Assembly (NCBI GenBank): GCA_964622375.1
Contig: CAZUQA010000036.1
Location: 24,811 to 48,810 of the forward strand
DNA from: an uncultured Erysipelotrichaceae bacterium
GTDB lineage: Bacteria; Bacillota_I; Bacilli_A; Erysipelotrichales; Erysipelotrichaceae
Reading direction: 5' to 3'
DNA: 24,000 nucleotides
The notes under the pieces are model-generated. The model saw only the letters and a program-made list of their open reading frames with translations. It made no database searches and was not told the DNA's origin. Positions within the stretch are counted from its first letter, which is position 1. Every line of letters starts with the position of its first letter. This document shows, in pieces, positions 2 through 24,000 of the stretch. The position numbers and the translations under genes were made by a program.

Positions 2-1078
2 CGTTATAGCCTACTGGTCAGTAAAAAGACAGTTGATGATTTGCAGGAAAAGGCAGAAATACTGACCACAGAAGTCTTACAACTGGAAAAAGCTTTGTTA
101 AAGAAGCCGGAACTGATTTCTGAGCTCGGTTTGCCAAAGAAGGTCTTAAACAAAATTTCTCGAATTAGAAGCGACAAGGAAAATGATGTCAGATTGATGC
201 GGTTTGATTTTCATCCCACAGCGGAAGGTTGGCGTTTATCGGAAGTAAATTCTGATGTACCAGCCGGCTTGGCAGAAAACTCAGCTTTGCCGAAGATTAC
301 CCAAGCCATGTTTCCTCAGGGGGAATTAGGGAGAAATGTTGTTGAAAGCCTGGGTCAAGCTTTCAAAAAACGGCTAGGGGGAAAGGCTAATATTGCTTTA
401 ATTCATGCCACGGCTTACGCTGATGATCGCCAAATTGCCTGTTGTGTAGCTGACTATTTTAATCAAATTGGACTGCATAGTAGTTTGGTGGCACCAAATC
501 ATATTGACTGGCGCCAGCGTCATGCCTATCTCGCTGGTAGCGAATTGCGCTTTGATGGCATCTATCGCCACTTCCCCTTTGAATGGTTAGCCCAGTTGAG
601 CGACAAAGCCCAATGGTTGGGTTACTATGACAGTTTGACCCCGGCTTGTAATCCGGCAATTGCGATTTTATCTCAGTCCAAAAGACTACCCTTACTGTGG
701 GATAAACTACAACTCGATGTACCGGGGTGGCGAACCATGTTACCGGAAACAAAAGCGCTTGAAAAAAAGGCCGGCCCGGGAATTTGGATTTACAAACCGG
801 CATATGGCCGCGTTGGGGAAGGTATCAGCATTAATGAAGCTATATCGGAAAAAGAAAGAAAAAAGATTCTGAAAGCCGTAAAGTATCATAAGAAGTATTG
901 GGTCCAACAACAGAAATTTAACAGTGAAGTTTTAGTGGGCGAAAACAATGAGCGCTTCCATTTGTGCCTAGGGGTGTATACCGTTTGCGGTAAAGCCGCC
1001 GGCTTCTATGGGCGCATCAGTGAGTATGCGCGCATTGATGAAAGAGCGCAAGATATTGCCGTACTAATCGGAGAATAA
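2..1078 (+). CDS. Glutathionylspermidine-synthase-family ATP-grasp amidoligase (YgiC/YjfC-like), 5' end outside window
   Basis: The frame is open from base 2, with no stop before the listed TTG at 41 and no ATG until deep inside, so the gene continues upstream. Blocks match E. coli YgiC/YjfC/GspS synthetase domains as I recall them: RFDFHPTAEGWRLSEVNSDVPAG, SKRLPLLW, IYKPAYGRVGEGISI, GRISEYARIDERAQD. Stop TAA at 1076-1078. Confidence 0.8.
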   Translation, partial: RYSLLVSKKTVDDLQEKAEILTTEVLQLEKALLKKPELISELGLPKKVLNKISRIRSDKENDVRLMRFDFHPTAEGWRLSEVNSDVPAGLAENSALPKITQAMFPQGELGRNVVESLGQAFKKRLGGKANIALIHATAYADDRQIACCVADYFNQIGLHSSLVAPNHIDWRQRHAYLAGSELRFDGIYRHFPFEWLAQLSDKAQWLGYYDSLTPACNPAIAILSQSKRLPLLWDKLQLDVPGWRTMLPETKALEKKAGPGIWIYKPAYGRVGEGISINEAISEKERKKILKAVKYHKKYWVQQQKFNSEVLVGENNERFHLCLGVYTVCGKAAGFYGRISEYARIDERAQDIAVLIGE

Positions 1079-1093
1079 AACGGAGGTAGAGTG

Positions 1094-1858
1094 ATGGATA
1101 GAAACTACGAGATATTTGAAATATGGGCGCCTAGTGACGGGCTTTGGTCACCCTGGGCAAAACCCATCCTATTCACTAATTTAAGAAAAGAAGAAGAACC
1201 TTTGAGTTATAAGACACCGGAGTGGCTTGCAGCTTTTGACCAACAAATGATGATTGTTCTCGATGTTGAAGGAGATAAAGGGGTCAAAACAGCTTTGGGC
1301 TTAGCCTTATTGGGTTATCGACCGGTTCCTTTATATAATGGCGCCTTAAATACCGAAGCCTATAGTGACAATGTGCAAGAAAAGTACAACATGGCGGTTG
1401 ACCCAACTGCTATCTCCAAAGCTTTGTATAGCGGTAGTCGCGATTTGGCTTTGCTTCCGCTTTCCAGAAAAGCGCCACCGGTCTTCATGTTAGACTCGGC
1501 CCGTTTACCGCAAAAGATTTTATCGGGCACAATTTATGATAATCGCTGGACCATCTTTCCTCAAGATTTCCCCTCGGCTACTTTTTTGAAAAATCAGGGA
1601 ATAAACAAAGTGCTGGTACGACAAGACAAAGTGAATGATGATCTTTTACATGTTCTCTATCGTTATAAAGAAAAAGGCTTGGAGATACTAACTTGCAGTA
1701 ACAGTGGGGCCCAAAGAGAATACTTAATGCCGATTCCTCCGCGTTTTCGCCAAGTCGGCTATCGGGCGCAAGCTTTCCTGGGCTTAACCAGCAATTCCAC
1801 CGGGGGCTTTGGGAAAAAAATTGCCATCGATATCAATTCGGGGTATCGCGGCGGCTAG
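1094..1858 (+). CDS. Hypothetical protein (254 aa) coupled to the ATP-grasp ligase; no family recognised
   Basis: GGAGG at 1083-1087 lies 6-7 nt before ATG 1094. The listed GTG at 1091 is too close to the RBS. The gene begins 15 nt after the upstream stop. The long ORF has protein-like composition. The protein ends in SGYRGG. I recognise no motif. Confidence 0.7.
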   Translation: MDRNYEIFEIWAPSDGLWSPWAKPILFTNLRKEEEPLSYKTPEWLAAFDQQMMIVLDVEGDKGVKTALGLALLGYRPVPLYNGALNTEAYSDNVQEKYNMAVDPTAISKALYSGSRDLALLPLSRKAPPVFMLDSARLPQKILSGTIYDNRWTIFPQDFPSATFLKNQGINKVLVRQDKVNDDLLHVLYRYKEKGLEILTCSNSGAQREYLMPIPPRFRQVGYRAQAFLGLTSNSTGGFGKKIAIDINSGYRGG

Positions 1859-2778: not shown

Positions 2779-3321
2779 ATGAAAAAGCAGATACAATTTA
2801 TCAGCCAGACCGCTCTTATGTTGGCTTTACTGATAGTAGTACAAATGCTTACCCGGTCTTTACCGACTTATGTAACCGGATCCTTGGTGAATGCCCTACT
2901 CTTATTGAGCACCTTTTTGATTGGCTTAAACAGCGGTTTATTTATCGCCTTAACTTCACCTTTTTTGGCTTTCATATTGGGTATTGGACCGGCTTTTATT
3001 CAGATACTTTTCTTTGTAGCTATAGCTAATGCCATAATTGTCACTTTAGCTTGGCTGTTGGCGAAAAACAGTATCAGTTCTACTACCAAAACCGCCAGAA
3101 TCAAAAGTAGCGGCGGTTTAGCTATCGCTTCACTGGCTAAGATGACTTTCTTATGGCTGGGTTTAGTGAAGTTTGCCTTGCCTTTAATACCCGGCTTAAA
3201 AGAAGGGCAAATCAAAGTGATCAGCGCTAGCTTCAGTTGGCCACAACTTATAACGGCTTTAATCGGCAGTGGCTTGGCTTTGTTTCTTGTGCCCATGCTA
3301 AAAAAGGCCCTGAAGAAATAG
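2779..3321 (+). CDS. ECF-transporter S-component-like integral membrane protein (180 aa); substrate unknown, niacin-type is only a context guess
   Basis: Strong RBS AAGGAGG at 2763-2769. About 5-6 hydrophobic helices and a size typical of solitary S components. No EcfA/EcfT genes are adjacent. It sits upstream of the pncA/pncB cluster. Confidence 0.55.
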   Translation: MKKQIQFISQTALMLALLIVVQMLTRSLPTYVTGSLVNALLLLSTFLIGLNSGLFIALTSPFLAFILGIGPAFIQILFFVAIANAIIVTLAWLLAKNSISSTTKTARIKSSGGLAIASLAKMTFLWLGLVKFALPLIPGLKEGQIKVISASFSWPQLITALIGSGLALFLVPMLKKALKK

Positions 3322-3341
3322 CAAATATTAGGAAAGTTTGA

Positions 3342-3350
3342 TGCTATACT
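3342..3350 (+). promoter_or_regulatory. Extended -10 element TGCTATACT
   Basis: TGnTATAcT lies 28 nt upstream of the rubredoxin ATG. It has the same ATGCTATA core as the elements at 1871 and 17596. Confidence 0.4.
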
Positions 3351-3377
3351 TTAGTTAGAGAAATAAGGAGATTGGCT

Positions 3378-3500
3378 ATGAAATGGGTATGCAAATTGTG
3401 TGGTTATGTTTACGATGGAGAAATCCCTTTTGAAAGTTTACCGGAAGACTGGGTCTGCCCGCTGTGCGGCGCTGAAAAAAGCGAGTTTATTCAAGAATAA
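3378..3500 (+). CDS. Rubredoxin, unusually short (40 aa: [40 protein letters not shown]), absent from the ORF track
   Basis: My own translation. Both rubredoxin knuckles are present: CxxCGY at residues 5-10 and DWxCPxCG at residues 24-31. AAGGAG at 3365-3370 lies 7 nt before the ATG. Stop TAA at 3498-3500. Confidence 0.85.
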
Positions 3501-3524
3501 ACAATAACGCGAAACTTACAAAGC

Positions 3525-3581
3525 AGGAAGCAAAGACTTTGATTAGGCTTTTATCGGTTATCGTTGTTGCTTCCTTTTTGT
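3525..3581 (+). terminator. Probable terminator: 9-bp stem AGGAAGCAA / TTGCTTCCT with a large 32-nt loop, then TTTTGTT
   Basis: Arms at 3525-3533 and 3566-3574, followed by a T-run at 3575-3581. The loop is atypically large, so an alternative structured leader cannot be excluded. Confidence 0.45.
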
Positions 3582-3623
3582 TGGGCAGGATACATTTGCC
3601 TGTCAGCATAAAGCGGAAAATAG

Positions 3624-3629
3624 TATAAT
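3624..3629 (+). promoter_or_regulatory. -10 hexamer TATAAT upstream of the pncA operon
   Basis: Perfect TATAAT 18 nt before ATG 3647, with GAGGA (3636-3640) between them. The -35 is poor (TGTCAG at 17-nt spacing). Confidence 0.4.
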
Positions 3630-3646
3630 TATATTGAGGAAAATAT

Positions 3647-4204
3647 ATGAAAAACTTACTGATAGTGGTAGACATGATTAACGGTTTTATCAATGAAGGT
3701 AATCTGCATGATAAGGAAATTGCCAATATCATACCGGCTTGCGCCAATCATATCGCGGAGTTTCTGGCTAACAAAGATGACGTCATTGCTTTTTGTGATA
3801 ACCATCAACCAGACAGTAAAGAATTCACAGTTTTCCCAGTGCATTGTTTAACAACTAGTAGTGAAAGTGAATTGGTTGCTGAGTTGCAGGACTTTCAAGA
3901 TGAGATGGTGGTAATTGCGAAAAACTCAACTAACGGATTTTTTGCGCCGGGCTTTGCGCCTTATAAAGAACGCTTAAATGAATATGAAAAGATCCTTATC
4001 GTGGGCTGTTGTAGTGACATCTGTGTCTTACAATTGGCTTTGAGTTTACGGGCTTACTGTAATGAGTTCAACTATGATTGTGTCATCATTGTTGATACAG
4101 CAGCCTGTGAAACCTTTGAAATACCGGGACACTTACGTCAGGACTACAATGAATTTGCCTATAACTTAATGGCAGCCAGCGGTATTACTTTAGTGAATAG
4201 ATAA
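3647..4204 (+). CDS. pncA: Nicotinamidase / isochorismatase-family cysteine hydrolase
   Basis: LLIVVDMINGF supplies the catalytic Asp, IAKNS the Lys, and VGCCSDICV the nucleophile Cys. FPVHC resembles the nicotinamidase WPxHC block. It lies immediately upstream of pncB. Confidence 0.8.
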   Translation: MKNLLIVVDMINGFINEGNLHDKEIANIIPACANHIAEFLANKDDVIAFCDNHQPDSKEFTVFPVHCLTTSSESELVAELQDFQDEMVVIAKNSTNGFFAPGFAPYKERLNEYEKILIVGCCSDICVLQLALSLRAYCNEFNYDCVIIVDTAACETFEIPGHLRQDYNEFAYNLMAASGITLVNR

Positions 4205-4221
4205 TTATCGAGGTAAAAAAG

Positions 4222-5670
4222 ATGAACGAAAAAGACTTGATGTTATTGACTGATTATTATGAATTGACGATGGCTTTTGCCTACTTTCAGGAAGGTAAAC
4301 AAAAGGAAATTGCTTACTTTGATATGTTTACCCGCAAAGCACCGGATGGTGGCGGTTATTTGGTATTCAACGGTTTACAGCGTTTTATCGACTTCGTAGT
4401 AAATTTCAAATTTACGGAAGAACAGTTAGCCTACATCCAAAAGAACAACAGCTTTACTGAAGAATTCATCGCTTACCTGAGAAATATGAAATTGAACATC
4501 GATGTTTGGTCACTACCGGAAGGAGCGGTAGCTTTTCCAAATGAGCCTTTGATGTGTGTGCGTGGCAATTGGATAGAAGCCCAAATTGTGGAAACTATAT
4601 TACTGGTATCGGTAAACTATGCGACTTTGATTGCCACTAAAGCCAGCCGTATTGCCGGAGCAGCCAAGGGGCGTGGAGTTTTGGAGTTTGGTGCCAGAAG
4701 AGCCCAAGGGGCTGTAGCCGCGCTTGAAGGAGCCAGGGCAGCGATTATCGCCGGTTGTATTGCCAGTTCAAATACCTTAGCCGGGTTTAAATATGATATA
4801 CCGGTCGCCGGAACCATGGCGCATAGCTACATCCAACTCTACGACGATGAATATCAAGCTTTCTTAACCTTTGCGAAACATCAACCGCATAATTGTACTT
4901 TCTTGGTTGATACCTACGATTCTTTAAAAAGCGGCGTACCTAATGCCATTAGAGTGGCTAAGGAGTACTTGGAGCCTAAGGGCTACAAACTGAAAGCTAT
5001 CCGCTTAGATAGCGGCGACTTGGCTTACTTGGCGAAGAATGCCAGAAAACTCTTGGATGCAGCCGGTTTGTCTGATGTTAAAATTATGGTCAGCAATTCA
5101 CTCAACGAATTTTTGATTGAAGACTTGTTGAACCAAGGGGCACCCATCGATTTGTTTGGCGTCGGTGAGAACCTGATTACCGCTGCTTCTAATCCGGTAT
5201 TAGGTGGGATTTATAAGGTAGTGGCTTATGAGAAAGATGGTAAGATCGTTCCAACCATCAAAATCAGTGACAATGTTGAAAAAGTTACGACCCCGGGCTA
5301 CAAGAAAGTCTATCGTTTCTATGACCGGGAGAATAAGGCAATTGCCGATTTGATTGCCTTGGCGGATGAAGTGATACCCTTGGAAGGTTATGAACTCTTT
5401 GACCCGGTTTCACCGTGGAAACGTAAATATATCAAGAATTACACAGTCAAAGCTTTACATCAGGAAATCTTTGTCCAGGGGCAACTAGTGTATGAAGCAC
5501 CATCCACTTTAGAAGTGGCTAGCTACCACAAAGCCGAGTTAGCGACGTTGTGGGATGAAGTCAAGCGTCTGCGTAATCCTCATAACTACTATGTCGATTT
5601 ATCGCAGCAGCTCTTTGACATGAAAAACGATTTAATTGCCTATCATCGGGCAAAAAACCAAGAGAAATAG
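4222..5670 (+). CDS. pncB: Nicotinate phosphoribosyltransferase
   Basis: The N-terminal LLTDYYELTMAFAYF block, GTMAHSYIQ and RLDSGDLAYL are typical of the roughly 480-aa Gram-positive PncB. GAGG RBS at 4210-4213. Confidence 0.95.
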   Translation: MNEKDLMLLTDYYELTMAFAYFQEGKQKEIAYFDMFTRKAPDGGGYLVFNGLQRFIDFVVNFKFTEEQLAYIQKNNSFTEEFIAYLRNMKLNIDVWSLPEGAVAFPNEPLMCVRGNWIEAQIVETILLVSVNYATLIATKASRIAGAAKGRGVLEFGARRAQGAVAALEGARAAIIAGCIASSNTLAGFKYDIPVAGTMAHSYIQLYDDEYQAFLTFAKHQPHNCTFLVDTYDSLKSGVPNAIRVAKEYLEPKGYKLKAIRLDSGDLAYLAKNARKLLDAAGLSDVKIMVSNSLNEFLIEDLLNQGAPIDLFGVGENLITAASNPVLGGIYKVVAYEKDGKIVPTIKISDNVEKVTTPGYKKVYRFYDRENKAIADLIALADEVIPLEGYELFDPVSPWKRKYIKNYTVKALHQEIFVQGQLVYEAPSTLEVASYHKAELATLWDEVKRLRNPHNYYVDLSQQLFDMKNDLIAYHRAKNQEK

Positions 5671-5681
5671 GAGGTAAAGTG

Positions 5682-7184
5682 ATGTCCCAAGTCAGTAATA
5701 TTGTCGAAGATAAAAGTTTAACCTACTACCAACAATTAACGGCTTTAGCTCGTTTAGGGGAAAGTACGGATGACACGATTAAGTACAACCCTTTGTATCG
5801 CCATGCGGTGGCTGAGCATTTACTTTGTGATCTCAATGAAGGCTTGCTGCCTTATCGGCCGCGCTATATTATTCCGCGTTATGAACTATTAATGGAGAAA
5901 GGCAGTGAGTTTTTAGGCATCACTAAACCCACAGATATCTGGGAAGCGACAGCCGCCTTGTTGATTATGTATCACCATGTTCCTTCGATCACCACCTTTC
6001 CGGTGTGGTTGGGCAATCTCGATGCTTTACTTGAGCCTTTCATTGATGATGAAAGCGAAGCGCGAAAAGCAATCAGATTGTTTTTAGCACATATTGATAA
6101 AACGCTTCCTGATTCCTTTGTCCATGGAGACCTCGGACCTAAAGCCACTAAAGCCGGTGCAATTATTATAGAATTGACCCAAGAGATGCAGCTGGCTGTT
6201 CCCAATTTGACTTTGAAGTACGACAAAGATCTTACCGAAAAAGACTTCGCGCAAAAGGCAATGAGGTGCATGTTGTTGTCAGCTAAACCGAGTTTCGCCA
6301 ACCACAAGATGTTCACAGCCGATTACGGGGATTACGCTATCGCTTCCTGCTATAACGGTTTTATCAATGGAGGTGGCGGTTATACCCTACCACGGATGAT
6401 CTTGGCGCATATCGCCCAAAAAGCGCTTTCTGTCGCCCATTTCATGCAGGAGATATTACCACACTATGTGGCTTTACAATTGGAATACATGGATCAACGT
6501 ATTGCGTATTTGGTAGAGAAAGCGGCTTTCTTTAAGTCAAATTTCTTAGTTACCGAAGGCTTTGTTGATCGTCAGCTCTTTGTCGGCATGTTTGGTATTG
6601 TCGGCTTGGCGGAGTGTTGTAACAATCTGTTAGGGATTACAGACAAAGCTCAAGGTTTCGGACATAACCAAGAAGCTGATGATTTGGGGGTAGCAATTCT
6701 CGATAAAATTGAAGAACTTCTAGAAGCCCACAAAGCACCCTATAGTGAAGGAAATAACGATCGCTACTATCTGCACGCTCAAGTAGGTATTGATACCGAT
6801 GGTATTACCGCAGCTCCCGGTTGTCGGATACCAATCGGTTTTGAACCACCTTTTGCCCAACAGTTAAAACACAGCACGCGTTATCATAAACTTTTCAGAA
6901 CCGGTATCGGCGATGTCTTCAGTTTTGATCGGACGTGGCTGAACGCTTTAGATGCGCTGAATGATGTCATCGATGGGGCTTTCGCCAATGGGGTCCGCTA
7001 TATTTCCGGTTACTTACAAGATGGTGATTTAATCAGAGTTACCGGCTACTTAGTCAAAAAAAGTGAAGTAGCTAAATTGGATGCCGGTCAAGCCAGCTTA
7101 AACCAAGTGACGGTGTTTGGTAAAGGGGCGCGCGACGGGGCTAAAGCTTTCCAACGCAGTGTAAATCATGAAAGCCGTGATTAA
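5682..7184 (+). CDS. yjjI: YjjI-family glycyl-radical enzyme (about 500 aa), substrate unknown
   Basis: The C-terminal glycyl-radical-type motif is DLIRVTGYLV (Gly codon GGC at 7044-7046). Size and overall look match E. coli YjjI (DUF3029-type) rather than 750-850-aa PFL-type enzymes. It is followed by an overlapping activase gene. GGAGG at 5670-5674 favours ATG 5682 over the listed GTG 5679. Confidence 0.85.
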   Translation: MSQVSNIVEDKSLTYYQQLTALARLGESTDDTIKYNPLYRHAVAEHLLCDLNEGLLPYRPRYIIPRYELLMEKGSEFLGITKPTDIWEATAALLIMYHHVPSITTFPVWLGNLDALLEPFIDDESEARKAIRLFLAHIDKTLPDSFVHGDLGPKATKAGAIIIELTQEMQLAVPNLTLKYDKDLTEKDFAQKAMRCMLLSAKPSFANHKMFTADYGDYAIASCYNGFINGGGGYTLPRMILAHIAQKALSVAHFMQEILPHYVALQLEYMDQRIAYLVEKAAFFKSNFLVTEGFVDRQLFVGMFGIVGLAECCNNLLGITDKAQGFGHNQEADDLGVAILDKIEELLEAHKAPYSEGNNDRYYLHAQVGIDTDGITAAPGCRIPIGFEPPFAQQLKHSTRYHKLFRTGIGDVFSFDRTWLNALDALNDVIDGAFANGVRYISGYLQDGDLIRVTGYLVKKSEVAKLDAGQASLNQVTVFGKGARDGAKAFQRSVNHESRD

Positions 7185-8004
7185 TCATATCATTGAATTT
7201 TCTAATGTTGATGGCCCGGGAAATCGCCTGGCCATCTTTTTTCAGTCTTGTTGTTTTAAGTGTCTGTATTGTCACAATCCTGAGACGATTAGGCTCTGCG
7301 ATAATTGTGGCGACTGTATCGCCGCTTGTCCAAAGTCAGCCTTAAGTTTAGTTGACGGCCTTATCAAACATGATGAAAAAAGTTGTGTACGTTGTGACGC
7401 GTGCATTTTAGCTTGCGAAAAGCTAGCTGATCCTCGGGTCAAAAATTATGAACTGTCGGAGGTGTTAGAGATAATTAAGGCCAATAAAGATTATATTCGC
7501 GGGATAACGGTAAGCGGTGGCGAGCCGTTGTTGTATTGTGAGTTTATCACGGCTTTGTTTAAAGAAACCCAAGCTTTAGGTTTGACTTGTCTGTTGGATA
7601 CTAACGGTAACTACGACTTCATCCAACTACAAGAGCTGTTGTTGTATTGCGATGGGGTGATGTTGGATGTCAAAGGCGTCGCTGATGAGTATCACCGGTT
7701 TTTGACCGCTTGTACTAACGAAAGAGTACTAAAGAGTTTGGATTATCTGTTGGAAATAGCTAAATTATATGAAGTGAGAACGGTCTTACTTCCGGGACAA
7801 ATAGAGCAAAATAAAGAAACCATACGCTATGTTGTGGCAAAATTGAACAATCGTTGTCGCTATAAGTTGATTAAATATCGGCCCTATGGTGTCAGAGAAG
7901 CCGGGCTACAAACTTATGGTAAGCAGGTGCTTAATGAAGCAGAATTTACCGAATTGGTAGATTATGCCAAGTCCTTAAATGCGGAGAATTTGGTATTAAT
8001 TTAG
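7168..8004 (+). CDS. yjjW: Glycyl-radical enzyme activating protein (radical SAM, YjjW-like)
   Basis: NVDGPGNRLAIFFQSCCFKCLYCHNPE carries CX3CX2C. Two ferredoxin-type clusters follow: CDNCGDCIAACP and CVRCDACILACE. GGEPLL is present. It overlaps yjjI by 17 nt. Confidence 0.9.
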   Translation: MKAVINHIIEFSNVDGPGNRLAIFFQSCCFKCLYCHNPETIRLCDNCGDCIAACPKSALSLVDGLIKHDEKSCVRCDACILACEKLADPRVKNYELSEVLEIIKANKDYIRGITVSGGEPLLYCEFITALFKETQALGLTCLLDTNGNYDFIQLQELLLYCDGVMLDVKGVADEYHRFLTACTNERVLKSLDYLLEIAKLYEVRTVLLPGQIEQNKETIRYVVAKLNNRCRYKLIKYRPYGVREAGLQTYGKQVLNEAEFTELVDYAKSLNAENLVLI

Positions 8005-8060
8005 TATCAAAATTAGGATTGTAAGTCATTGTGTGAAATCGCTTTTTATGAGTAATCTCA

Positions 8061-8089
8061 TTGACGGAAGAGCCTATTATTGATAGAAT
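8061..8089 (+). promoter_or_regulatory. Sigma-A-type promoter: -35 TTGACG, 17-nt spacer, extended -10 TGATAGAAT
   Basis: TTGACG at 8061-8066 and TGnTAGAAT at 8081-8089. This is the best consensus promoter in the window. It lies 39 nt upstream of the BMP lipoprotein ATG. Confidence 0.65.
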
Positions 8090-8094
8090 TAGGT

Positions 8095-8108
8095 TGACTT
8101 AAAAGTCA
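8095..8108. promoter_or_regulatory. Perfect palindrome TGACTT-AA-AAGTCA at the predicted transcription start; candidate operator
   Basis: 6-bp arms with a 2-nt centre, starting 6 nt after the -10 and ending 7 nt before the RBS (GGAGG 8116-8120). Confidence 0.35.
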
Positions 8109-8127
8109 CTTAAATGGAGGAGAAATA

Positions 8128-9177
8128 ATGAAAAAGGTTTTTGCTTTGTTATTGGTACTCGCCTTGGTTCTGGGAGCTGTTGGTTGTAAAAAAGAAGAAG
8201 CTGGCGGAAAAATAACAATAGGATTCGTTACCGACGTTGGCGGGATAAATGATAAATCATTTAACCAATCTAGTTGGGAAGGAATTGTTAAGTTCGGAAC
8301 AGAAAACGGTTTGGCAGTTGATAAAGAAATCAAATTCATCCAATCAGCAACTGATGCTGACTTAGTACCTAACTTGACGATTTTAGCTGAAGAAGGTTTC
8401 GAATTGATTATTGGTGCCGGATACAAATTCGAAGGTGCTGTAAAAGAAGTATCGGAAAAATATCCTAACCAAAAAATGCTGATTATTGATGTCGGCGGCT
8501 TAGAAGGAGCCAATGTTCAACAAGCTGTTTTTGCGGAGCACGAAGGATCTTTCTTGGTGGGTGTTGTTGCCGGTATGGCAGCCAAAGAAAAAGGGCATAA
8601 GAAAGTTGGTTACATTGTAGGGTTTGAAGGTGGAATCATGGAAAAATTCTTTGCCGGTTTCGAAGCTGGTGTCAAAGAAGTTTATCCAGAATGTGAAATT
8701 CTCTATGAAGTTGCTTATAGCTTCAATGATGACTCAATCGGTAAAACTATTGCCACTAAAATGTACAATTCCGGAGCTTACATAATTTATCATGCTGCCG
8801 GTGGAACGGGATTTGGCGTTATTACCGAAGCCGCAGAACGTCGTAAGAATGGTCAAGATGTTTGGGCAATTGGTGTCGATTCTGACCAATATCCTTATGG
8901 TTTCTATGATGATGCTAAAACTAAATCATCAGTATTAACTTCGATGTTGAAGAGAGTTGATGTTGCTGCTTACAATGCTTGTAAAGAGGTTAAAGATGGA
9001 ACTTTCAAGGGTGGTACTGTTGTTTATAATTTAGCTAAGAATGGTGTTGGTATTCCTACAGAAAACCCGAACTTTAAAGAATTTACTTCGGATTTCGATA
9101 CCGCACTCAAAACTTATACCGAAAAAATCATTAAGGGCGAGATTGTAGTTCCTGAGATCAGCCCCAGCAGAAAATAA
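8128..9177 (+). CDS. BMP-family (PnrA/TmpC/NupN-like) ABC substrate-binding lipoprotein, probably nucleoside-binding
   Basis: Signal peptide with lipobox LGAVGC. The family block is GFVTDVGGINDKSFNQSSWEG. It is followed by a duplicated-ATPase gene and two permease genes, as in B. subtilis nupNOPQ. Confidence 0.9.
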   Translation: MKKVFALLLVLALVLGAVGCKKEEAGGKITIGFVTDVGGINDKSFNQSSWEGIVKFGTENGLAVDKEIKFIQSATDADLVPNLTILAEEGFELIIGAGYKFEGAVKEVSEKYPNQKMLIIDVGGLEGANVQQAVFAEHEGSFLVGVVAGMAAKEKGHKKVGYIVGFEGGIMEKFFAGFEAGVKEVYPECEILYEVAYSFNDDSIGKTIATKMYNSGAYIIYHAAGGTGFGVITEAAERRKNGQDVWAIGVDSDQYPYGFYDDAKTKSSVLTSMLKRVDVAAYNACKEVKDGTFKGGTVVYNLAKNGVGIPTENPNFKEFTSDFDTALKTYTEKIIKGEIVVPEISPSRK

Positions 9178-9205
9178 GCTAGATTTAGCTGTAAATTATT
9201 AAGTG

Positions 9206-9239
9206 AAAGCTCTGTATTGAACAGAGCTTTTTTTGTTTT
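9206..9239 (+). terminator. Intra-operon hairpin and T-run: AAAGCTCTGT-ATTGA-ACAGAGCTTT then TTTTGTTTT
   Basis: A perfect 10-bp stem (9206-9215 / 9221-9230) with a 5-nt loop and a T tract. It lies between the binding-protein and ATPase genes. Confidence 0.8.
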
Positions 9240-9284
9240 AAATAGTCCCTTTTATGAGTATAATATTAACAAAAGGGGCAGAAT

Positions 9285-10817
9285 ATGATATATGCAATAG
9301 AGATGCTCAATATCACTAAAGATTTTCCGGGGATACGAGCAAATGATAATGTTACTCTAAGAATTGAAAAGGGGAAAATTCACGCAATATTGGGAGAGAA
9401 TGGTGCCGGCAAATCGACTATCATGTCCATACTTTTTGGTTTATATCAACCATCCAGTGGCAGAATTATAGTTAATGGCAAGGAAGTTGTCGTCAGCAAT
9501 CCCAATGTGGCAAACAACCTGGGAATCGGGATGGTCCATCAACACTTTAAGTTGATTGAAAACTACACAGTAACGGAGAATATAATCTTGGGTTCCGAGC
9601 CAAGAACGGTTTTTCACACAATCAATATGAAGAAAGCCATTGCCCGGGTTAAAGAAATATCCGAGAAGTATGGGCTGAATGTTGATCCGACAGCTAAAAT
9701 CCAAGATATTGGCGTTGGCATGCAACAACGGGTGGAAATATTGAAGATGCTTTATCGGGATTCCGATATTCTGATTTTCGATGAACCCACGGCGGTATTG
9801 ACGCCGCAAGAAATCCATGAATTGATGGATATCATGAAGAGTATGGCCGCCGAAGGTAAGACCATTCTGCTAATTACCCATAAGCTCAACGAAATCAAAG
9901 AGGTGGCAGATATCTGTTCGGTTTTACGTAAAGGGAAACTCGTAGGAACGGTTAAGGTCAAAGATATCAATGAAGCGCAGATGGCGGAAATGATGGTTGG
10001 GCGCAAGATAAATTTTGAACTGGATAAAAACGACATCAAGCTGGGAAATGTTGTCTTGTCAATAAAGAATCTGAATGTGAAAAATGCTGTTGGTTTACTG
10101 GCAGTGAAAGACTTCTCCTTAGAAGTTCGCGGTGGGGAGATTGTCGGTCTAGCTGGCATCGACGGCAATGGACAAACCGAGTTGGTATATGCCTTGACTG
10201 GTCTGCGCAAGATTGAATCAGGGACAATCGAGCTAAACGGTGAGGATATTACGACCGTACCCACCAAAAAACGGCTGGCTAAAGGGATGTCTCATGTACC
10301 GGAAGACCGCCATCGCCACGGTTTAGTATTAGATTTTACTTTAGAAAACAACTTCATTATTCATAACTATGATGAAAATCCTTACAGCAAAAGCGGCATT
10401 CTTCAGCCTTCCATTATTAGTAAACACGCCGATGATTTGATTATGCAGTTTGATATCCGCAGCGGACAAGGAAGAGAATCGATAACCAGAACGATGTCGG
10501 GGGGGAATCAACAAAAAGCAATAATCGCCCGAGAGATCGATCGTTCATCGGATTTACTGGTTGTTGTACAACCGACCAGAGGTCTGGATGTCGGCGCTAT
10601 CGAATACATTCACGGTAGAATACTACAGGAACGCGATGCCGGGAAAGCTATACTTTTAGTGTCTTTGGAGCTTGATGAGGTTATGCAACTATCGGATCGC
10701 ATCGCCGTTATTCACAAAGGACAATTAACCGGTTTGATGGCTGGGGCAGGTGCTGATGAAAATGAAATTGGCTTAATGATGTCCGGGGCTTTGAGAAAAA
10801 TCGCAGGTGAATTATGA
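9285..10817 (+). CDS. ABC transporter ATP-binding protein with two fused ATPase domains (NupO/RbsA-type)
   Basis: Walker A is GENGAGKST. The first signature region and ILIFDEPTAVL are present. The second half has MSGGNQQK and a second Walker B-like LLVVVQPTRGLD. At 510 aa it has the typical length. Confidence 0.95.
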   Translation: MIYAIEMLNITKDFPGIRANDNVTLRIEKGKIHAILGENGAGKSTIMSILFGLYQPSSGRIIVNGKEVVVSNPNVANNLGIGMVHQHFKLIENYTVTENIILGSEPRTVFHTINMKKAIARVKEISEKYGLNVDPTAKIQDIGVGMQQRVEILKMLYRDSDILIFDEPTAVLTPQEIHELMDIMKSMAAEGKTILLITHKLNEIKEVADICSVLRKGKLVGTVKVKDINEAQMAEMMVGRKINFELDKNDIKLGNVVLSIKNLNVKNAVGLLAVKDFSLEVRGGEIVGLAGIDGNGQTELVYALTGLRKIESGTIELNGEDITTVPTKKRLAKGMSHVPEDRHRHGLVLDFTLENNFIIHNYDENPYSKSGILQPSIISKHADDLIMQFDIRSGQGRESITRTMSGGNQQKAIIAREIDRSSDLLVVVQPTRGLDVGAIEYIHGRILQERDAGKAILLVSLELDEVMQLSDRIAVIHKGQLTGLMAGAGADENEIGLMMSGALRKIAGEL

Positions 10818-11917
10818 AAAAGAATAAAGCAATGATGGTATCGCTAGTAGCGGTTTTGTTAGGCTTGATGTTAGGTTTTGTTGTCGCGATATTGACTGGT
10901 AGGAATCCTCTGAATATGCTGTATGCCATACTGCGATCGCTTACCGGTTTTGATTTTTCCAAATCACGCCTTACTTTCAATGTAATATTTATCTTAAACT
11001 GGTTTGTTGACTGTGTGCCTTTAATCCTTACCGGTTTATCAGTCGCTTTTGCTTATCGCACCGGTTTATTTAATATCGGTGCCGAAGGGCAATACATGAT
11101 CGGCTCAACGGTGGCAGCTGCTGTAGCTTTATATGTTAAAGCCCCACCGCTTATTCATGTGACGCTTTGTATCCTGGCTGCCATGTTAGCCGGAGCCCTT
11201 TGGGGAGCGATTCCCGGTTTATTAAAAGCGACACGGAATATCCATGAAGTTGTTATTTGTATAATGATGAATTACATCGGTTGGTATGTGTCAAACTGGT
11301 TGGTACGGGGTTACATGCCGATTTATAAAGTGACCAATGATCGGACGATCGAAATTCCTTCAACCGCCAGAATCGAACGCGTCTTCGCTAACTCACCCTC
11401 GCAGTTTAACTGGGGCTTTGTCGTAGTGATAATTGCCATTATTCTTTTTTGGTTTATTATCGAAAAGACAACTTTTGGTTATTCTTTAAAGGCGACGGGC
11501 TTTAATAAAGATGCAGCGAATTTTGCCGGTATGAAAGTTAAGCGGAATATTGTTTACTCCATGATGATTTCCGGAGCGATAGCTGGTAGTGTTGGCGCTT
11601 TACTGATATTAGGGATTTTTAGGTATGGCCGGATATTTACCATGTTTGACAACTATGGTTTTACCGGGATACCGGTAGCTTTAGTCGGTGCCGCTAATGC
11701 CTGGGGTGTAGCCTTAGCCGGGATGCTGTTTGGCTTGCTAAAAGCTTGTAGTAACAGCTTCCAACTATTTGGTATACCGAAGGAAATATCAGAGTTAATT
11801 CAAGCTTCCATAATATTCTTAGTGGCTATTCAATACGGCATTATTTATGTTCTTGACAAACTAAAGAAGAACAAGAATGAAGTAGTTGAAGTGCTAGGGG
11901 AAGGAGAACGCGACTGA
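10814..11917 (+). CDS. ABC transporter permease (NupP-like)
   Basis: A polytopic hydrophobic protein whose ATG overlaps the upstream stop (ATGA at 10814-10817). It has the typical BMP-system permease size of 367 aa. Confidence 0.9.
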   Translation: MKKNKAMMVSLVAVLLGLMLGFVVAILTGRNPLNMLYAILRSLTGFDFSKSRLTFNVIFILNWFVDCVPLILTGLSVAFAYRTGLFNIGAEGQYMIGSTVAAAVALYVKAPPLIHVTLCILAAMLAGALWGAIPGLLKATRNIHEVVICIMMNYIGWYVSNWLVRGYMPIYKVTNDRTIEIPSTARIERVFANSPSQFNWGFVVVIIAIILFWFIIEKTTFGYSLKATGFNKDAANFAGMKVKRNIVYSMMISGAIAGSVGALLILGIFRYGRIFTMFDNYGFTGIPVALVGAANAWGVALAGMLFGLLKACSNSFQLFGIPKEISELIQASIIFLVAIQYGIIYVLDKLKKNKNEVVEVLGEGERD

Positions 11918-12873
11918 TGAAACTGATTATCGAAATGTGTCCGATTGCTTTAATACTGGCAACCCCGCTAATCATCGCCGGTTTAGGCGGCTTTTGGGCG
12001 GAACGCTCCGGCGTCGTAAACATTGCCTTGGAGGGTATTATGGTGATGGGTGGTTTTGCCGGAGCCGGTTTCTTATATGTTTTTAGTGTAGGCAAAGTAC
12101 CGGGGGCGCTTTGGCTTTCCTTGTTATTGGCGATTGTTGTCGGCATGATTTTTAGCACTTTGTTGGGATTTGCCGCTATCCACATGAAGTCGGATCAGAC
12201 TATTACCGGAACTTCACTTAACATTATGGCTGGCGGTTTGGCAATTTATCTCTGCGAAATCATCTTTGGCGCAAAAAATACACCGGCGTATTCTTTAAAT
12301 GCGGCTTTTAATCGGATTTCTGTACCTGTTCTTAAAGATATTCCCGTCGTCGGTGAGATACTTTTCACCGACAACTATCCGACTTTATATATCGCTGTTG
12401 GCTTGGTATTGTTGACCTGGTTTGTCGCATACAAGACACCGTTTGGCATTCATTTGCGTTCTTGCGGTGAATATCCGCAAGCTAGTGCTTCTATGGGGAT
12501 TTCTGTCACCAAGATGCGTTGGATCGGGGTAATCCTTTCCGGGGCGCTGGCTAGTTTCGCCGGAGCGGTTTCTGTGATCACAAACTCCCAAAGTTTCTAT
12601 GCCGGGTCCATTCATGGGTTAGGTTTTATTGCGATTGCCACTTTGATTTTTGGCCGCTGGAATCCTTGGGGAATTTTGGGGGCGGGGTTGTTCTTTGGCT
12701 TTTCACAAACCCTGGGCTACTATTCGACGACTATACCGTTCTTTCTTAGTTGGCCGGGTGAGTTTTTTGCGGCTTTTCCCTATATCACGACCGTGATAGT
12801 GTTAATCCTTACCAGCGGTAAAACGGTTGGTCCGAAAGCTGCCGGCCAAATTTACGACGCCGGTAAACGTTAG
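11917..12873 (+). CDS. ABC transporter permease (NupQ-like)
   Basis: A polytopic hydrophobic protein with a TGATG one-base overlap with the upstream gene. 318 aa. Confidence 0.9.
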   Translation: MKLIIEMCPIALILATPLIIAGLGGFWAERSGVVNIALEGIMVMGGFAGAGFLYVFSVGKVPGALWLSLLLAIVVGMIFSTLLGFAAIHMKSDQTITGTSLNIMAGGLAIYLCEIIFGAKNTPAYSLNAAFNRISVPVLKDIPVVGEILFTDNYPTLYIAVGLVLLTWFVAYKTPFGIHLRSCGEYPQASASMGISVTKMRWIGVILSGALASFAGAVSVITNSQSFYAGSIHGLGFIAIATLIFGRWNPWGILGAGLFFGFSQTLGYYSTTIPFFLSWPGEFFAAFPYITTVIVLILTSGKTVGPKAAGQIYDAGKR

Positions 12874-12908
12874 GGATAATAGAGTATGACGATAAAAGGA
12901 GACCAGTG

Positions 12909-13715
12909 ATGGACAATGCGGAAAAGATCAAACTAGGTCGTCAATTCACCAAATTCGATGATGATCCCGCTTATAAATCTGATCAGGAGTTGAATTTACC
13001 ACAACCGCCTTTAGTGAAAGCGGCGATGACAAAAAATCAAATTGATTTACCCATGAACTTTGAGGATTTAAACCTCAACAATGACGTGCTTTCCCTGCTC
13101 TATAATCGGGAAAGCCATCGCATTTACAGTCAAAAAGAAATGAGCTTATTGGAGCTGTCTTTCTTATTGTGGGCTACTCAGGGCATCAAGGAAATACGTG
13201 GTAACAACTATGCGACCATTAGAACCGTACCCTGTGGCGGTGCCCGCCATGAGTTTGAGACTTACCTGATAGTAAAAAACATTAAAGGATTAGTACGTGG
13301 TATTTATCATTATTTACCAATGGAAGATGCCATTGAATTACTACAAGAGCTAGAAGATACCGACAAAAAGGTAAGTGAAGCTCTGATGGGTCAAGCTTGG
13401 GCCAGTAAAGCCAATGTCGTATTTTTGTGGTCTTTGGTGCCTTATCGTGCTGAGTGGCGCTATGGGATTTTTGCCCATCGGGTGATGATGATGGACATCG
13501 GCCATGTTGGGGAGAACCTCTATTTAGCTTGCGAGGCTTTAGGTTTAGGAACCTGTGGGGTTGGGGCTTTTGATCGAACTGTTTGTGATGGCCTTATCGG
13601 CTTAGAGGGGACAGAAGAGTATACGGTATACGCCTCGCCGGTAGGAACCATCAACAAAAGTGCTAAAGAAAAAACAGCGCTGTCTCTCAAACAGAAAAGA
13701 CAAACGCTGGAGTAG
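12909..13715 (+). CDS. SagB/ThcOx-type nitroreductase-family dehydrogenase (stand-alone)
   Basis: RTVPCGGARHEFETYL, IYHYLP and the GLGTCGVGAFD blocks are typical of SagB-type FMN dehydrogenases. AAGGAG at 12896-12901 favours ATG 12909 over the listed GTG 12906. Confidence 0.8.
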   Translation: MDNAEKIKLGRQFTKFDDDPAYKSDQELNLPQPPLVKAAMTKNQIDLPMNFEDLNLNNDVLSLLYNRESHRIYSQKEMSLLELSFLLWATQGIKEIRGNNYATIRTVPCGGARHEFETYLIVKNIKGLVRGIYHYLPMEDAIELLQELEDTDKKVSEALMGQAWASKANVVFLWSLVPYRAEWRYGIFAHRVMMMDIGHVGENLYLACEALGLGTCGVGAFDRTVCDGLIGLEGTEEYTVYASPVGTINKSAKEKTALSLKQKRQTLE

Positions 13716-13732
13716 AGATAAATATTACAATT

Positions 13733-13760
13733 GAAGACTAGACTAAGTCTTCTTTTTTTA
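13733..13760 (+). terminator. Hairpin GAAGACT-AGACTA-AGTCTTC followed by TTTTTTTA
   Basis: A 7-bp stem (13733-13739 / 13746-13752) and a T7 run. It overlaps the last codons and stop (13738-13740) of the convergent minus-strand gene. Confidence 0.7.
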
Positions 13761-14301
13761 AGGCGAAGATGGTAGTTATATTTTTCTGGATTTTTTTTGA
13801 AATAATGTTGATGATCAGCTCTTCAATAGCCGAGATTAAACCGACGGCTGCTAAATAGATAGTCGGCAGCTTGAAGTCAAAAATGAAGCACAAAAAAGGA
13901 AAACAGAAAACCGAGAAACCGGCTAATTTATTAGCGTAGGAGTGGAGAAAAGCAAATTCCTGGAATTTAATGTAGCCGACAAGTAAAGAGGCTAAACGGA
14001 TGACTACCACAATGGCAATAGCGGCTATCAACCAGGCTTGCCAATCGAGGTAGGGATAAACGACAATAAAGACAATTGCGAAAAATGTTAAGTCAGCGAT
14101 ACTGTCCAGTGTAGCGCCAAAGTGACTGATGACATTGAAACGTCGCGCTAAATAGCCATCTAAAAGATCACTGGCACCGGCTAAAGCGTAGACAACAAAG
14201 AAAACTAATGAAAACGGTGGCAGAAACAAAAGAAAGAGCGCACAAATGACCCTTATTCCGGTTACTAGATTGGGTAAACTACTTTTGAAATTCCTGCTCA
14301 T
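13738..14301 (-). CDS. CDP-alcohol phosphatidyltransferase family protein (PgsA-like size)
   Basis: The family signature D-G-x2-A-R-x8-G-x3-D-x3-D is present as DGYLARRFNVISHFGATLDSIAD. 187 aa with multiple TM helices. Confidence 0.85.
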   Translation of the reverse strand: MSRNFKSSLPNLVTGIRVICALFLLFLPPFSLVFFVVYALAGASDLLDGYLARRFNVISHFGATLDSIADLTFFAIVFIVVYPYLDWQAWLIAAIAIVVVIRLASLLVGYIKFQEFAFLHSYANKLAGFSVFCFPFLCFIFDFKLPTIYLAAVGLISAIEELIINIISKKIQKNITTIFALKKEDLV

Positions 14302-14421
14302 TGTTTGCGCTCCTAAAGAACTGCTTTATTGTTGGACTAATTATACTACTATTATTAGGGCGATTATCTCACATTTATCAGACAATTAAAAGTCGTTGTA
14401 AGTTTTCATTAAGGCTTTAGC

Positions 14422-14450
14422 TTGCGTTAAAAATGAATATTGCTTATAAT
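14422..14450 (+). promoter_or_regulatory. Promoter: -35 TTGCGT, 17-nt spacer, -10 TATAAT
   Basis: TTGCGT at 14422-14427 and TATAAT at 14445-14450, 22 nt upstream of ATG 14473. Confidence 0.5.
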
Positions 14451-14472
14451 GGGCTTACTTTAAGGAAAAGCT

Positions 14473-14769
14473 ATGGCGAAAAATTCTCGGAGACTGAAAA
14501 TCGGCAATATCTTGGTAACCTTGGTCGTCTTGACTATATCAGGGTATTTTCTCTATCAAGCCGGTAGTGACATCGTATCGACGCTTAAACTGACCAGCCA
14601 GGTTAAAGACAGTCAGAAACAAATTGAACTACTGGAAGAAGAGAATAAAATGTTAATTAACCAGAAAAATAAACTACAGGACCCGGAGTACATAAAAAGT
14701 TATGCTCGGGGGGCTTACATGTTATCGAAGAATGGGGAACAGATATTCCACATCCGCGGTGATGAATAA
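14473..14769 (+). CDS. Septum-formation initiator family protein (FtsB/DivIC-like)
   Basis: 98 aa with an N-terminal TM anchor, a coiled-coil segment (QIELLEEENKMLINQKNKLQ), and the DPEYIKSYARGAYMLSKNGEQIF block typical of this family. Confidence 0.8.
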   Translation: MAKNSRRLKIGNILVTLVVLTISGYFLYQAGSDIVSTLKLTSQVKDSQKQIELLEEENKMLINQKNKLQDPEYIKSYARGAYMLSKNGEQIFHIRGDE

Positions 14770-14771
14770 AG

Positions 14772-14799
14772 AAAGACTTGAGTAAAGTCTTTTTATTTG
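14772..14799. terminator. Bidirectional terminator hairpin AAAGACTT-GAGTA-AAGTCTTT between convergent genes
   Basis: An 8-bp stem (14772-14779 / 14785-14792), followed by TTATTT on the + strand and preceded by an A-rich tract. The minus-strand gene's stop is at 14793-14795. Confidence 0.7.
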
Positions 14800-23936: not shown

Positions 23937-24000
23937 GCCCCTATAGTTAAATGGATATAACGAGCCCCTCCTAAGGGCTAGTTACAAGTTCGATTCTTGT
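23937..24000 (+). tRNA. tRNA-Arg (anticodon CCU), 3' acceptor strand cut off by the window end
   Basis: Manual cloverleaf. Acceptor GCCCCTA. D arm GTTA/TAAC with a GG-containing loop. Anticodon stem AGCCC/GGGCT with loop CTCCTAA (CCT at 23970-23972). 4-nt variable loop. T arm ACAAG-TTCGATT-CTTGT ending at 24000. Confidence 0.85.

Follow-up and report, generated by a model that had tools for sequence, protein, structure and literature searches.

Why should two genes of nicotinamide salvage be chained to an orphan glycyl-radical enzyme? The question is raised by a stretch of 24,000 nucleotides (nt) from an uncultured Erysipelotrichaceae bacterium (hereafter the window), in which four tightly packed plus-strand open reading frames (ORFs) at 3647–8004 encode a PncA-like hydrolase (ORF1), PncB, the glycyl-radical enzyme YjjI and its activase YjjW. 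The original prediction, made from these letters alone, was that the coupling marks YjjI as acting on a pyridine or nucleoside-related substrate, or as supplying an anaerobic branch of nicotinamide adenine dinucleotide (NAD) salvage. With a confidence that reaches only a little past even, we read the unit as a clade-specific operon of two modules, pncAB and yjjIW, in which YjjI would carry out anaerobic radical chemistry on a nucleoside-derived compound and have a PnrA-type importer of the BMP family as its partner. Because the linkage to pncB is confined to one clade, we take the BMP importer and the deo genes found beside yjjI to be the real signal, and pncAB to be a lineage-specific addition.

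YjjI and YjjW are conserved in Escherichia coli, Salmonella, and many gut and rumen Firmicutes. Their orphan status, asserted in the original prediction, still holds: NCBIfam release 20 labels both families 'hypoth_equivalog', we found no paper characterising them, and the literature searched (the search was not exhaustive) assigns no reaction to the pair. No enzyme that acts on nucleosides is mentioned in a June 2026 review of the glycyl-radical enzymes. In E. coli, yjjI is directly activated by FNR (PMC3688515), and it was once placed in 'nitrogen metabolism' from its co-expression with FNR/NarL-regulated (nitrate-respiration) genes (PMC3228777); that co-expression being the sole basis of the assignment, we have not adopted it.

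Neighbours of yjjI across genomes

We compared 80 genome loci (one genome per species, drawn from more than 596 genome matches; YjjI identity 51–61%) and 80 metagenome loci (46–61%), together with the contigs of the closest relatives, all cited here by L numbers. Neighbours were counted by tblastn against the DNA, and neighbouring ORFs were also clustered without preselection. Both the clustering and the tblastn census place a BMP-type ATP-binding cassette (ABC) importer first among the recurring neighbour families after YjjW. A BMP binding protein is encoded within 6 kb of yjjI at 37 of the 160 other loci, in at least six gene orders, and no BMP gene occurs in the 532 kb of flanking DNA that lies 6–10 kb from yjjI at the same loci, where ~10 would be expected from a uniform distribution. 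The importer is downstream and on the same strand at the Erysipelotrichaceae loci and at L151, and at L152, L153 and L160 yjjI has a binding-protein match just before it, and the ATPase and permease genes come after it, again on the same strand. In metagenome-assembled genomes (MAGs) of rumen and gut Clostridia (L025, L041, L044, L051, L069) yjjIW, on the opposite strand, separates the BMP binding-protein gene from those for the ATPase and permeases, and it looks as if it had been inserted into the transporter operon.

Other nucleoside-related genes recur beside yjjIW as well. Breznakia (L017) has the order deoD-deoB-yjjI-yjjW followed by four BMP genes, cdd and pdp, and at L013 an ADP-ribosylglycohydrolase gene, four BMP genes, an IU-nucleoside hydrolase gene, yjjI and yjjW all share one strand; at L014/15, L059/66, L093, L104 and L143 the hydrolase genes are divergent from yjjI. 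IU-nucleoside hydrolase is found in eight loci, ADP-ribosylglycohydrolase likewise in eight, and PfkB sugar kinases also recur near yjjI; Pfam confirms the calls for all three families. L087 has a uridine-kinase-family gene after its BMP permease genes, and L171 has the order nupC-yjjI-yjjW with a 70-nt gap. In both E. coli and Edwardsiella, yjjI and deoCABD are divergently oriented, and in Edwardsiella a NupC transporter gene is convergent and downstream of yjjIW; the E. coli arrangement cited in the original prediction is correct.

A protein of ~650–680 amino acids (aa) with an ADP-ribosylglycohydrolase domain and an uncharacterised C-terminal half is encoded beside yjjI at L013, L014, L015, L059, L066, L089, L093, L104 and L143, usually together with an IU-type nucleoside hydrolase. 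What this long protein acts on may be a pointer to the true YjjI pathway.

The recurrence of non-homologous nucleoside systems beside yjjIW across phyla is the strongest clue to function that the comparison offers, if a partial and associative one, and it fits the looser alternative in the original prediction, that of a nucleoside-related substrate. The explanation that survives best beside it is that YjjI has nothing to do with nucleosides and serves, for example, a step of anaerobic central or nitrogen metabolism, its BMP and pncAB neighbours reflecting synteny or hitch-hiking. Some 70% of loci lack a nucleoside-related neighbour, and the contexts of yjjIW are highly variable; yet in different phyla, and in gene orders of many kinds, BMP, NupC, the Deo phosphorylases and mutase, IU-nucleoside hydrolase, cdd and pdp recur beside yjjIW. 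Two large related groups, the Erysipelotrichaceae and a set of rumen Clostridia, account for much of the BMP signal, but the BMP genes are absent from the 6–10 kb shells of the same loci, and at some of them yjjIW is embedded within the transporter operon. The regulation found for E. coli, which consists only of FNR activation and co-expression in nitrate respiration (PMC3688515, PMC3228777), also suits an unrelated function. On this balance we regard such a function as unlikely, if by no means negligible.

The pncAB linkage

The layout, spacings and coordinates first given for the four ORFs were re-derived identically, in a window with a G+C content of ~42% whose closest named relatives are Erysipelotrichaceae MAGs. 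ORF1 (3647–4204), a PncA-like cysteine hydrolase of 185 aa, is followed after a 17-nt gap by pncB (4222–5670), which encodes a nicotinate phosphoribosyltransferase of 482 aa, and after a further 11 nt by yjjI (5682–7184; 500 aa), which overlaps the start of yjjW (7168–8004; 278 aa) by 17 nt; all four are on the plus strand. A GTG at 5679 is an alternative start for yjjI, and the ATG at 5682 is the likely one because homologues begin 'MS...'. The ribosome-binding sites are located in or over the stop codons of the preceding genes, the AGGAGG of yjjI overlapping that of pncB.

Transcription signals are consistent with a single unit. Upstream of ORF1 is a promoter-like site at 3600–3629 (+) consisting of CTGTCA, an 18-nt spacer and TATAAT, with 10 of 12 consensus matches, and its TATAAT (3624–3629) is the only one within 3401–8200; a site of equal quality with an extended -10 element is present at 8061–8089 (+) ahead of the BMP operon, and both signals had been reported from the first reading of the sequence. 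Before the first site is a hairpin at 3518–3582 (+; -24 kcal/mol), with a 3′ arm that runs into UUUUUGUU, which is likely the terminator of the rubredoxin transcript; with a z-score of only -1.6 it is suggestive of an upstream edge to the four-gene unit at this position. That the unit has no internal hairpin or T-run holds in the sense that no intergenic terminator is found within 3647–8004, the terminator-like matches there being 5–8-pair stems inside coding sequence; nor is a terminator found between yjjW and the 8061–8089 site. These predicted signals make it plausible that the four genes are co-transcribed, and possible that transcription continues from yjjW into the BMP transporter. Rfam gives no match to a riboswitch or other RNA element upstream of pncA, either at gathering thresholds across the window or at E ≤ 1 in 3300–3700. 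An FNR/Crp box (TTGAT-N4-ATCAA, up to two mismatches) is absent from both promoter regions, and its 30 matches across the window, against 19.8 ± 4.6 expected, are near chance.

The linkage itself is restricted. Within 6 kb of yjjI, tblastn finds pncB at none of the 160 other loci and an ORF1-like gene at one (L128). The hydrolase-pncB-yjjI-yjjW order is kept in the relatives L085/86 (YjjI 72% identical), L084 (70%) and L087 (65%), which have different flanks and gaps of -32 to +53 nt among the four genes. A neighbour-joining tree built from 164 YjjI sequences unites the window and these relatives in one clade, the sister loci of which (L004, L089, L099) are without pncAB. Because the pncAB-linked loci form one clade with a sister group that lacks pncAB, the linkage represents a single evolutionary event, and the pncAB-yjjIW junction evidently arose a single time, in the common ancestor of a small clade of Erysipelotrichaceae-like bacteria.

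The raw material for such a junction is present in relatives. Many Erysipelotrichaceae (L012, L042, L053, L036, L079) have the order RNase J-FtsK-yjjI-yjjW-(BMP importer)-M16 peptidases. At L027 pncB-pncA is convergent and just past the last BMP permease gene, at L030 an ORF1-like gene is 9.6 kb downstream, and at L172/173, found via an ORF1 homologue, pncA-pncB stands alone between the ftsK and M16 genes, with no yjjIW. By this comparison pncAB and yjjIW are separable modules of one variable chromosomal region; because the two occur separately in the same variable slot of relatives, a local rearrangement suffices to explain their union, and an inversion or transposition within the region most likely joined them in the window's clade. 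At L085/L086 a defence island (12393–15631), with a GmrSD-like DUF262/HNH protein, an FRG-domain protein and an EcoRI-type methylase, replaces the BMP importer downstream of yjjW, which shows the downstream flank to be a variable region.

The proposal that YjjI has a pyridine substrate (nicotinamide, nicotinate or, at the ring, a riboside), or forms an anaerobic branch of NAD salvage, and for that reason shares an operon with pncAB, does not withstand these results. A survey of yjjI neighbourhoods had been named beforehand as the test that could refute it; the survey shows no enrichment of pncAB and an enrichment of the BMP importer instead, and because the pncAB linkage is confined to one clade the inference fails by its own standard. 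Tight as the coupling is, and probably translational, with a ribosome-binding site over the pncB stop codon and gaps of 1–53 nt across the clade, and although four or five diverged genomes, their flanks differing, have kept the junction, the fusion goes back to a single origin and pncB is near yjjI in none of the 160 others. The distant locus L128 has an ORF1-like hydrolase coupled to yjjW, but no pncB; L027 has pncAB and L030 an ORF1-like gene within 10 kb of yjjI, whereas at L172/173 pncAB fills the same slot without yjjIW. Enterobacterial yjjIW is located away from pncA and pncB (the E. coli map positions are 1.85 Mb for pncA and 4.6 Mb for yjjI), and the known steps of Preiss-Handler salvage need no radical chemistry. 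We therefore hold a pyridine substrate to be very unlikely.

The gene identities of the original prediction are borne out by hidden Markov model (HMM) scores, as is the operon-like packing by the layout, with the PncA call standing as probable only. PncB exceeds the cut-offs of NF006695 (656.6 bits; cut-off 469) and TIGR01513 (539.5; 297.4) and matches Pfam NAPRTase_N and NAPRTase_C (PF17767, PF17956). ORF1 matches Pfam Isochorismatase (2.4e-18). Its catalytic triad (D9/K92/C126) and metal-binding residues (D51/H53/H66) are unchanged when it is aligned with E. coli PncA and six subfamily members, but on the curated PncA equivalog model NF008623 it reaches only 21.8 bits, short of the cut-off of 174. 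Its relatives in the PDB include cysteine hydrolases and P. horikoshii PncA, the top match being an 'N-carbamoylsarcosine amidase related protein', and its homologues pair with pncB at loci with no yjjI nearby. From its active-site residues and its pairing with pncB, rather than from model membership, ORF1 is a probable nicotinamidase.

At L128 (metagenome contig Ga0073360_111, 8001–10992; YjjI 51% identical) the ORF1-like hydrolase gene follows yjjW with a 4-nt overlap; the product is 39% identical to ORF1 of the window and has a ~40-aa N-terminal extension, and there is no pncB nearby.

The least credible reading, to which we give only a marginal chance, makes ORF1 an amidase or hydrolase of the YjjI pathway (acting on its substrate or product) instead of a housekeeping nicotinamidase, with PncB as a passenger, as its divergence from the PncA model, its carbamoylsarcosine-amidase-related best PDB match and the yjjI-yjjW-ORF1-like order of L128 might suggest, but every nicotinamidase catalytic and metal-binding residue is conserved, ORF1 homologues overlap or abut pncB in L084–L087, L027 and L172/173 (the last without yjjI), and coupling to yjjW without pncB is seen at just one of 160 loci.

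YjjI, YjjW and the proposed reaction

YjjI is recognised by TIGR04040 (633.1 bits; cut-off 498.3) and by PF11230 (644 bits against 23, over profile positions 1–484 of 485), and YjjW by TIGR04041 (327.9 bits; cut-off 250.2) and by Pfam Radical_SAM, Fer4_12 and Fer4_7. The motif LIRVTGYLV first noted in the third ORF is present, and within its RVTGY is the radical Gly455 (numbered from the ATG; codon GGC at 7044–7046), whereas the thiyl Cys223 (codon 6348–6350) lies in an S-C-Y-N loop. The CX3CX2C motif and two ferredoxin-like clusters described for the fourth ORF correspond to C28-x3-C32-x2-C35 (the cluster that binds S-adenosylmethionine, SAM; codons spanning 7249–7272), C44/47/50/54 (7297–7329) and C73/76/79/83 (7384–7416). 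An activase gene is next to yjjI in 146 of the 150 loci with enough downstream DNA. At L008 and L062 (Anaerorhabdus), L070 and L081, yjjI is followed by at least 4.6 kb of DNA in which there is no yjjW homologue, and here the activase gene must either lie at another site or be absent.

The YjjI family is small: a set of 1.84 billion representatives yields ~20 full-length clusters at 50% identity, and invariance was scored over 19 representatives of such clusters. R452-V-T-G455-Y and S222-C223-Y-N225 are unchanged in all 19, and the family-wide invariants are C223, G455, E53, R61, Y62, D139, H148, N175, R238, E292, H365, Q367, D373, R382, R452 and R492. The window YjjI has cysteines at 49, 196, 223, 312, 313 and 381 and no C-terminal Cys cluster; C223 is the only universally conserved cysteine, and C49 is replaced by H, Y or D in 6 of the 19. 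C223 aligns with the Cys-Cys pair of a formate acetyltransferase in the PDB and would, by homology, be the counterpart of C418/C419 of PFL.

An AlphaFold2 model of YjjI (pLDDT 91.4) has as its closest solved folds the class III ribonucleotide reductases (RNRs), with TM scores of 0.70–0.75 (query-normalised) at 12–15% identity, followed by PflD/YbiW and PFL; the PDB sequence and fold matches include no solved YjjI structure. Assignment of YjjI as a class III RNR (NrdD) was rejected, as the PF13597 match (23.2 bits) falls short of the cut-off of 26.2 and the hhalign probability is only 40%, so that the likeness is one of fold only; an equation of YjjI residues with NrdD C175 and C384 was likewise dropped, the hhalign alignment being too weak at that probability. 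Because the second cysteine, C49, is not conserved, an RNR-type reduction by YjjI is unlikely, and we infer a single-thiyl elimination or lyase mechanism. The invariant arginines R61, R238, R382 and R492, and the PfkB kinases encoded nearby, would be compatible with an anionic, phosphorylated substrate.

We propose that the first module, pncA-pncB, would convert nicotinamide to nicotinate and then to nicotinate mononucleotide, the first two steps of niacin salvage. In the second module YjjW, as a radical-SAM activase with one SAM-binding and two auxiliary [4Fe-4S] sites, would make a 5′-deoxyadenosyl radical that takes a hydrogen atom from Gly455 of YjjI; from this glycine the radical would move on to Cys223, and Cys223 would attack the substrate, steps that are modelled on the conserved chemistry of the glycyl-radical enzyme superfamily. 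YjjI would then catalyse an elimination or a reaction of the lyase type, under anaerobic conditions, on a nucleoside or on the pentose or pentose-phosphate part of one, with the downstream PnrA-type nucleoside importer as the functional partner of yjjIW. Co-transcription with pncAB would reflect at most a shared scavenging of nucleosides and bases, for example of nicotinamide released from imported ribosides, and does not indicate pyridine-ring chemistry. In its fullest form the proposal is more tentative, falling somewhat short of an even chance: YjjI/YjjW may be an anaerobic nucleoside-catabolism enzyme that eliminates from or cleaves a nucleoside or pentose(-phosphate) by radical chemistry, with a substrate supplied by the BMP, NupC, Deo or IU-nucleoside hydrolase system of its host, and the clade of the window would have added nicotinamide salvage and thereby use both base and sugar.

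Several observations weigh against a nucleoside role for YjjI or against pncAB as a mere addition. The evidence for the nucleoside role is guilt by association throughout; a recognisable nucleoside-related neighbour is present at only 25 of the 82 loci with both flanks (~30%), and none was seen in Proteus and Providencia. The structure of the transcription unit is a predicted one. The four-gene junction is kept, with tight or overlapping junctions, despite the divergence of YjjI (65–72%), and this retention could reflect selection for co-expression; the coupling at L128 hints that the hydrolase may not be a mere passenger.

With the pncAB fusion an apparent lineage-specific rearrangement that carries little information on function, the census is the more useful result, and it yields candidate substrates: ribo- and deoxyribonucleosides, ribose-1-phosphate, ribose-5-phosphate, deoxyribose-5-phosphate and nicotinamide riboside. 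It makes the function of the orphan YjjI an experimentally testable question. A nucleoside-acting YjjI, if true, would represent a new reaction class in glycyl-radical enzymology and a missing step of anaerobic nucleoside use in the gut.

Flanking genes and related systems

Pfam confirms the Crp/Fnr regulator and rubredoxin that had been placed upstream of the unit, and the BMP importer downstream. The regulator gene (2053–2796, -; cNMP_binding, HTH_Crp_2) is divergent from a gene for a 180-aa membrane protein resembling the S component of an energy-coupling factor (ECF) transporter (2779–3321, +), and L085 and L087 likewise have a Crp-family gene upstream. The earlier description of this membrane protein as S-component-like proves borderline: there is a near-threshold match to Pfam ECF_trnsprt, which at 30.5 bits falls below the cut-off of 30.7, and there is no NCBIfam match. 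We take the protein to be a possible niacin-type vitamin transporter, NiaX-like, and together with pncAB its gene could form a locus for niacin uptake and salvage, with the sub-threshold Pfam match as the sole support. The rubredoxin (3378–3500, +; 40 aa; Pfam Rubredoxin 3.7e-12) is also present upstream in L084 and L085/86.

The BMP/PnrA-type ABC importer (8128–12873, +) comprises a binding protein (8128–9177; Pfam Bmp), a tandem-domain ATPase (9285–10817; ABC_tran) and two permeases (10814–11917 and 11917–12873; BPD_transp_2). Between the binding-protein and ATPase genes is a strong hairpin with a U-run (9205–9231, +), which is probably an intra-operon attenuator keeping binding-protein transcripts in excess. 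Beginning 32 nt past the last permease gene is the gene for a stand-alone SagB-type nitroreductase-fold protein (12906–13715, +; TIGR03605 domain, 126 bits), with a terminator-like hairpin just after it (13733–13752); the first 80 genome loci have no counterpart of it within 6 kb of yjjI, nor does the gene list of L084 show one. Towards the left end of the window (41–1858, +) are a glutathionylspermidine-synthase-like pre-ATP-grasp protein (PF03738) and then a 255-aa ORF without a Pfam match, a pair that is also present on ENA contig L002, and at the right end a tRNA gene (23937–24000, +; Rfam RF00005, 46.6 bits) is cut by the window boundary.

Each part of the locus can be set beside a known system. 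As a PncA-PncB Preiss-Handler pair, the first two genes include a pncB that passes the equivalog model and an ORF1 that retains the nicotinamidase triad and metal site, and they abut or overlap as at L027 and L172/173; they differ in that ORF1 belongs to a small divergent subfamily, the members of which are labelled only 'isochorismatase family cysteine hydrolase', and in their chaining to a glycyl-radical enzyme, which is limited to the window's clade. The importer resembles those of the PnrA/TmpC type in its binding protein, for which the best PDB match is Treponema pallidum TmpC/PnrA (2fqw, a purine-nucleoside receptor; E 3.9e-87), and in its expected operon make-up; its nucleoside specificity is putative, and its only NCBIfam similarity, a sub-threshold one, is to a 'putative B6' BMP transporter.

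With the class III RNRs, which act on a ribosyl substrate, YjjI shares a glycyl-radical barrel, a finger-loop cysteine and a radical-SAM activase, but it lacks an ATP cone, a C-terminal Zn-Cys cluster and a conserved second cysteine, and YjjW has two extra ferredoxin-like clusters. To our knowledge NrdG has no such clusters, as its length also suggests (~154 aa in E. coli). PflD/YbiW are formerly orphan E. coli-type glycyl-radical enzymes and are among the best fold matches to YjjI, although they are longer (~765–810 aa compared to 500 aa), their sequence similarity is non-significant (E 0.5–0.6), and they have another genomic context; their Cys-loop motif also differs from that of YjjI. PflD/YbiW have been solved with 1,5-anhydrohexitol-6-phosphate ligands (PDB 8id0, 8id7, 8yjo) and provide a precedent for glycyl-radical chemistry on a phosphorylated cyclic polyol.

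The nearest comparison is with E. coli YjjI (b4380) and YjjW (b4379), the founders of TIGR04040 and TIGR04041. The E. coli system is only 34% identical, and its genes form an FNR-activated two-gene unit divergent from deoCABD, whereas the window pair lies between pncA-pncB and the BMP importer. The two pairs nonetheless belong to the same families by HMM scores that exceed the curated cut-offs, with the same gene order and overlapping genes, and with the same invariant Cys (S-C-Y-N) and Gly (RVTGY) in YjjI; and both adjoin genes of nucleoside metabolism, deoCABD in E. coli and, putatively, the PnrA-type importer in the window.

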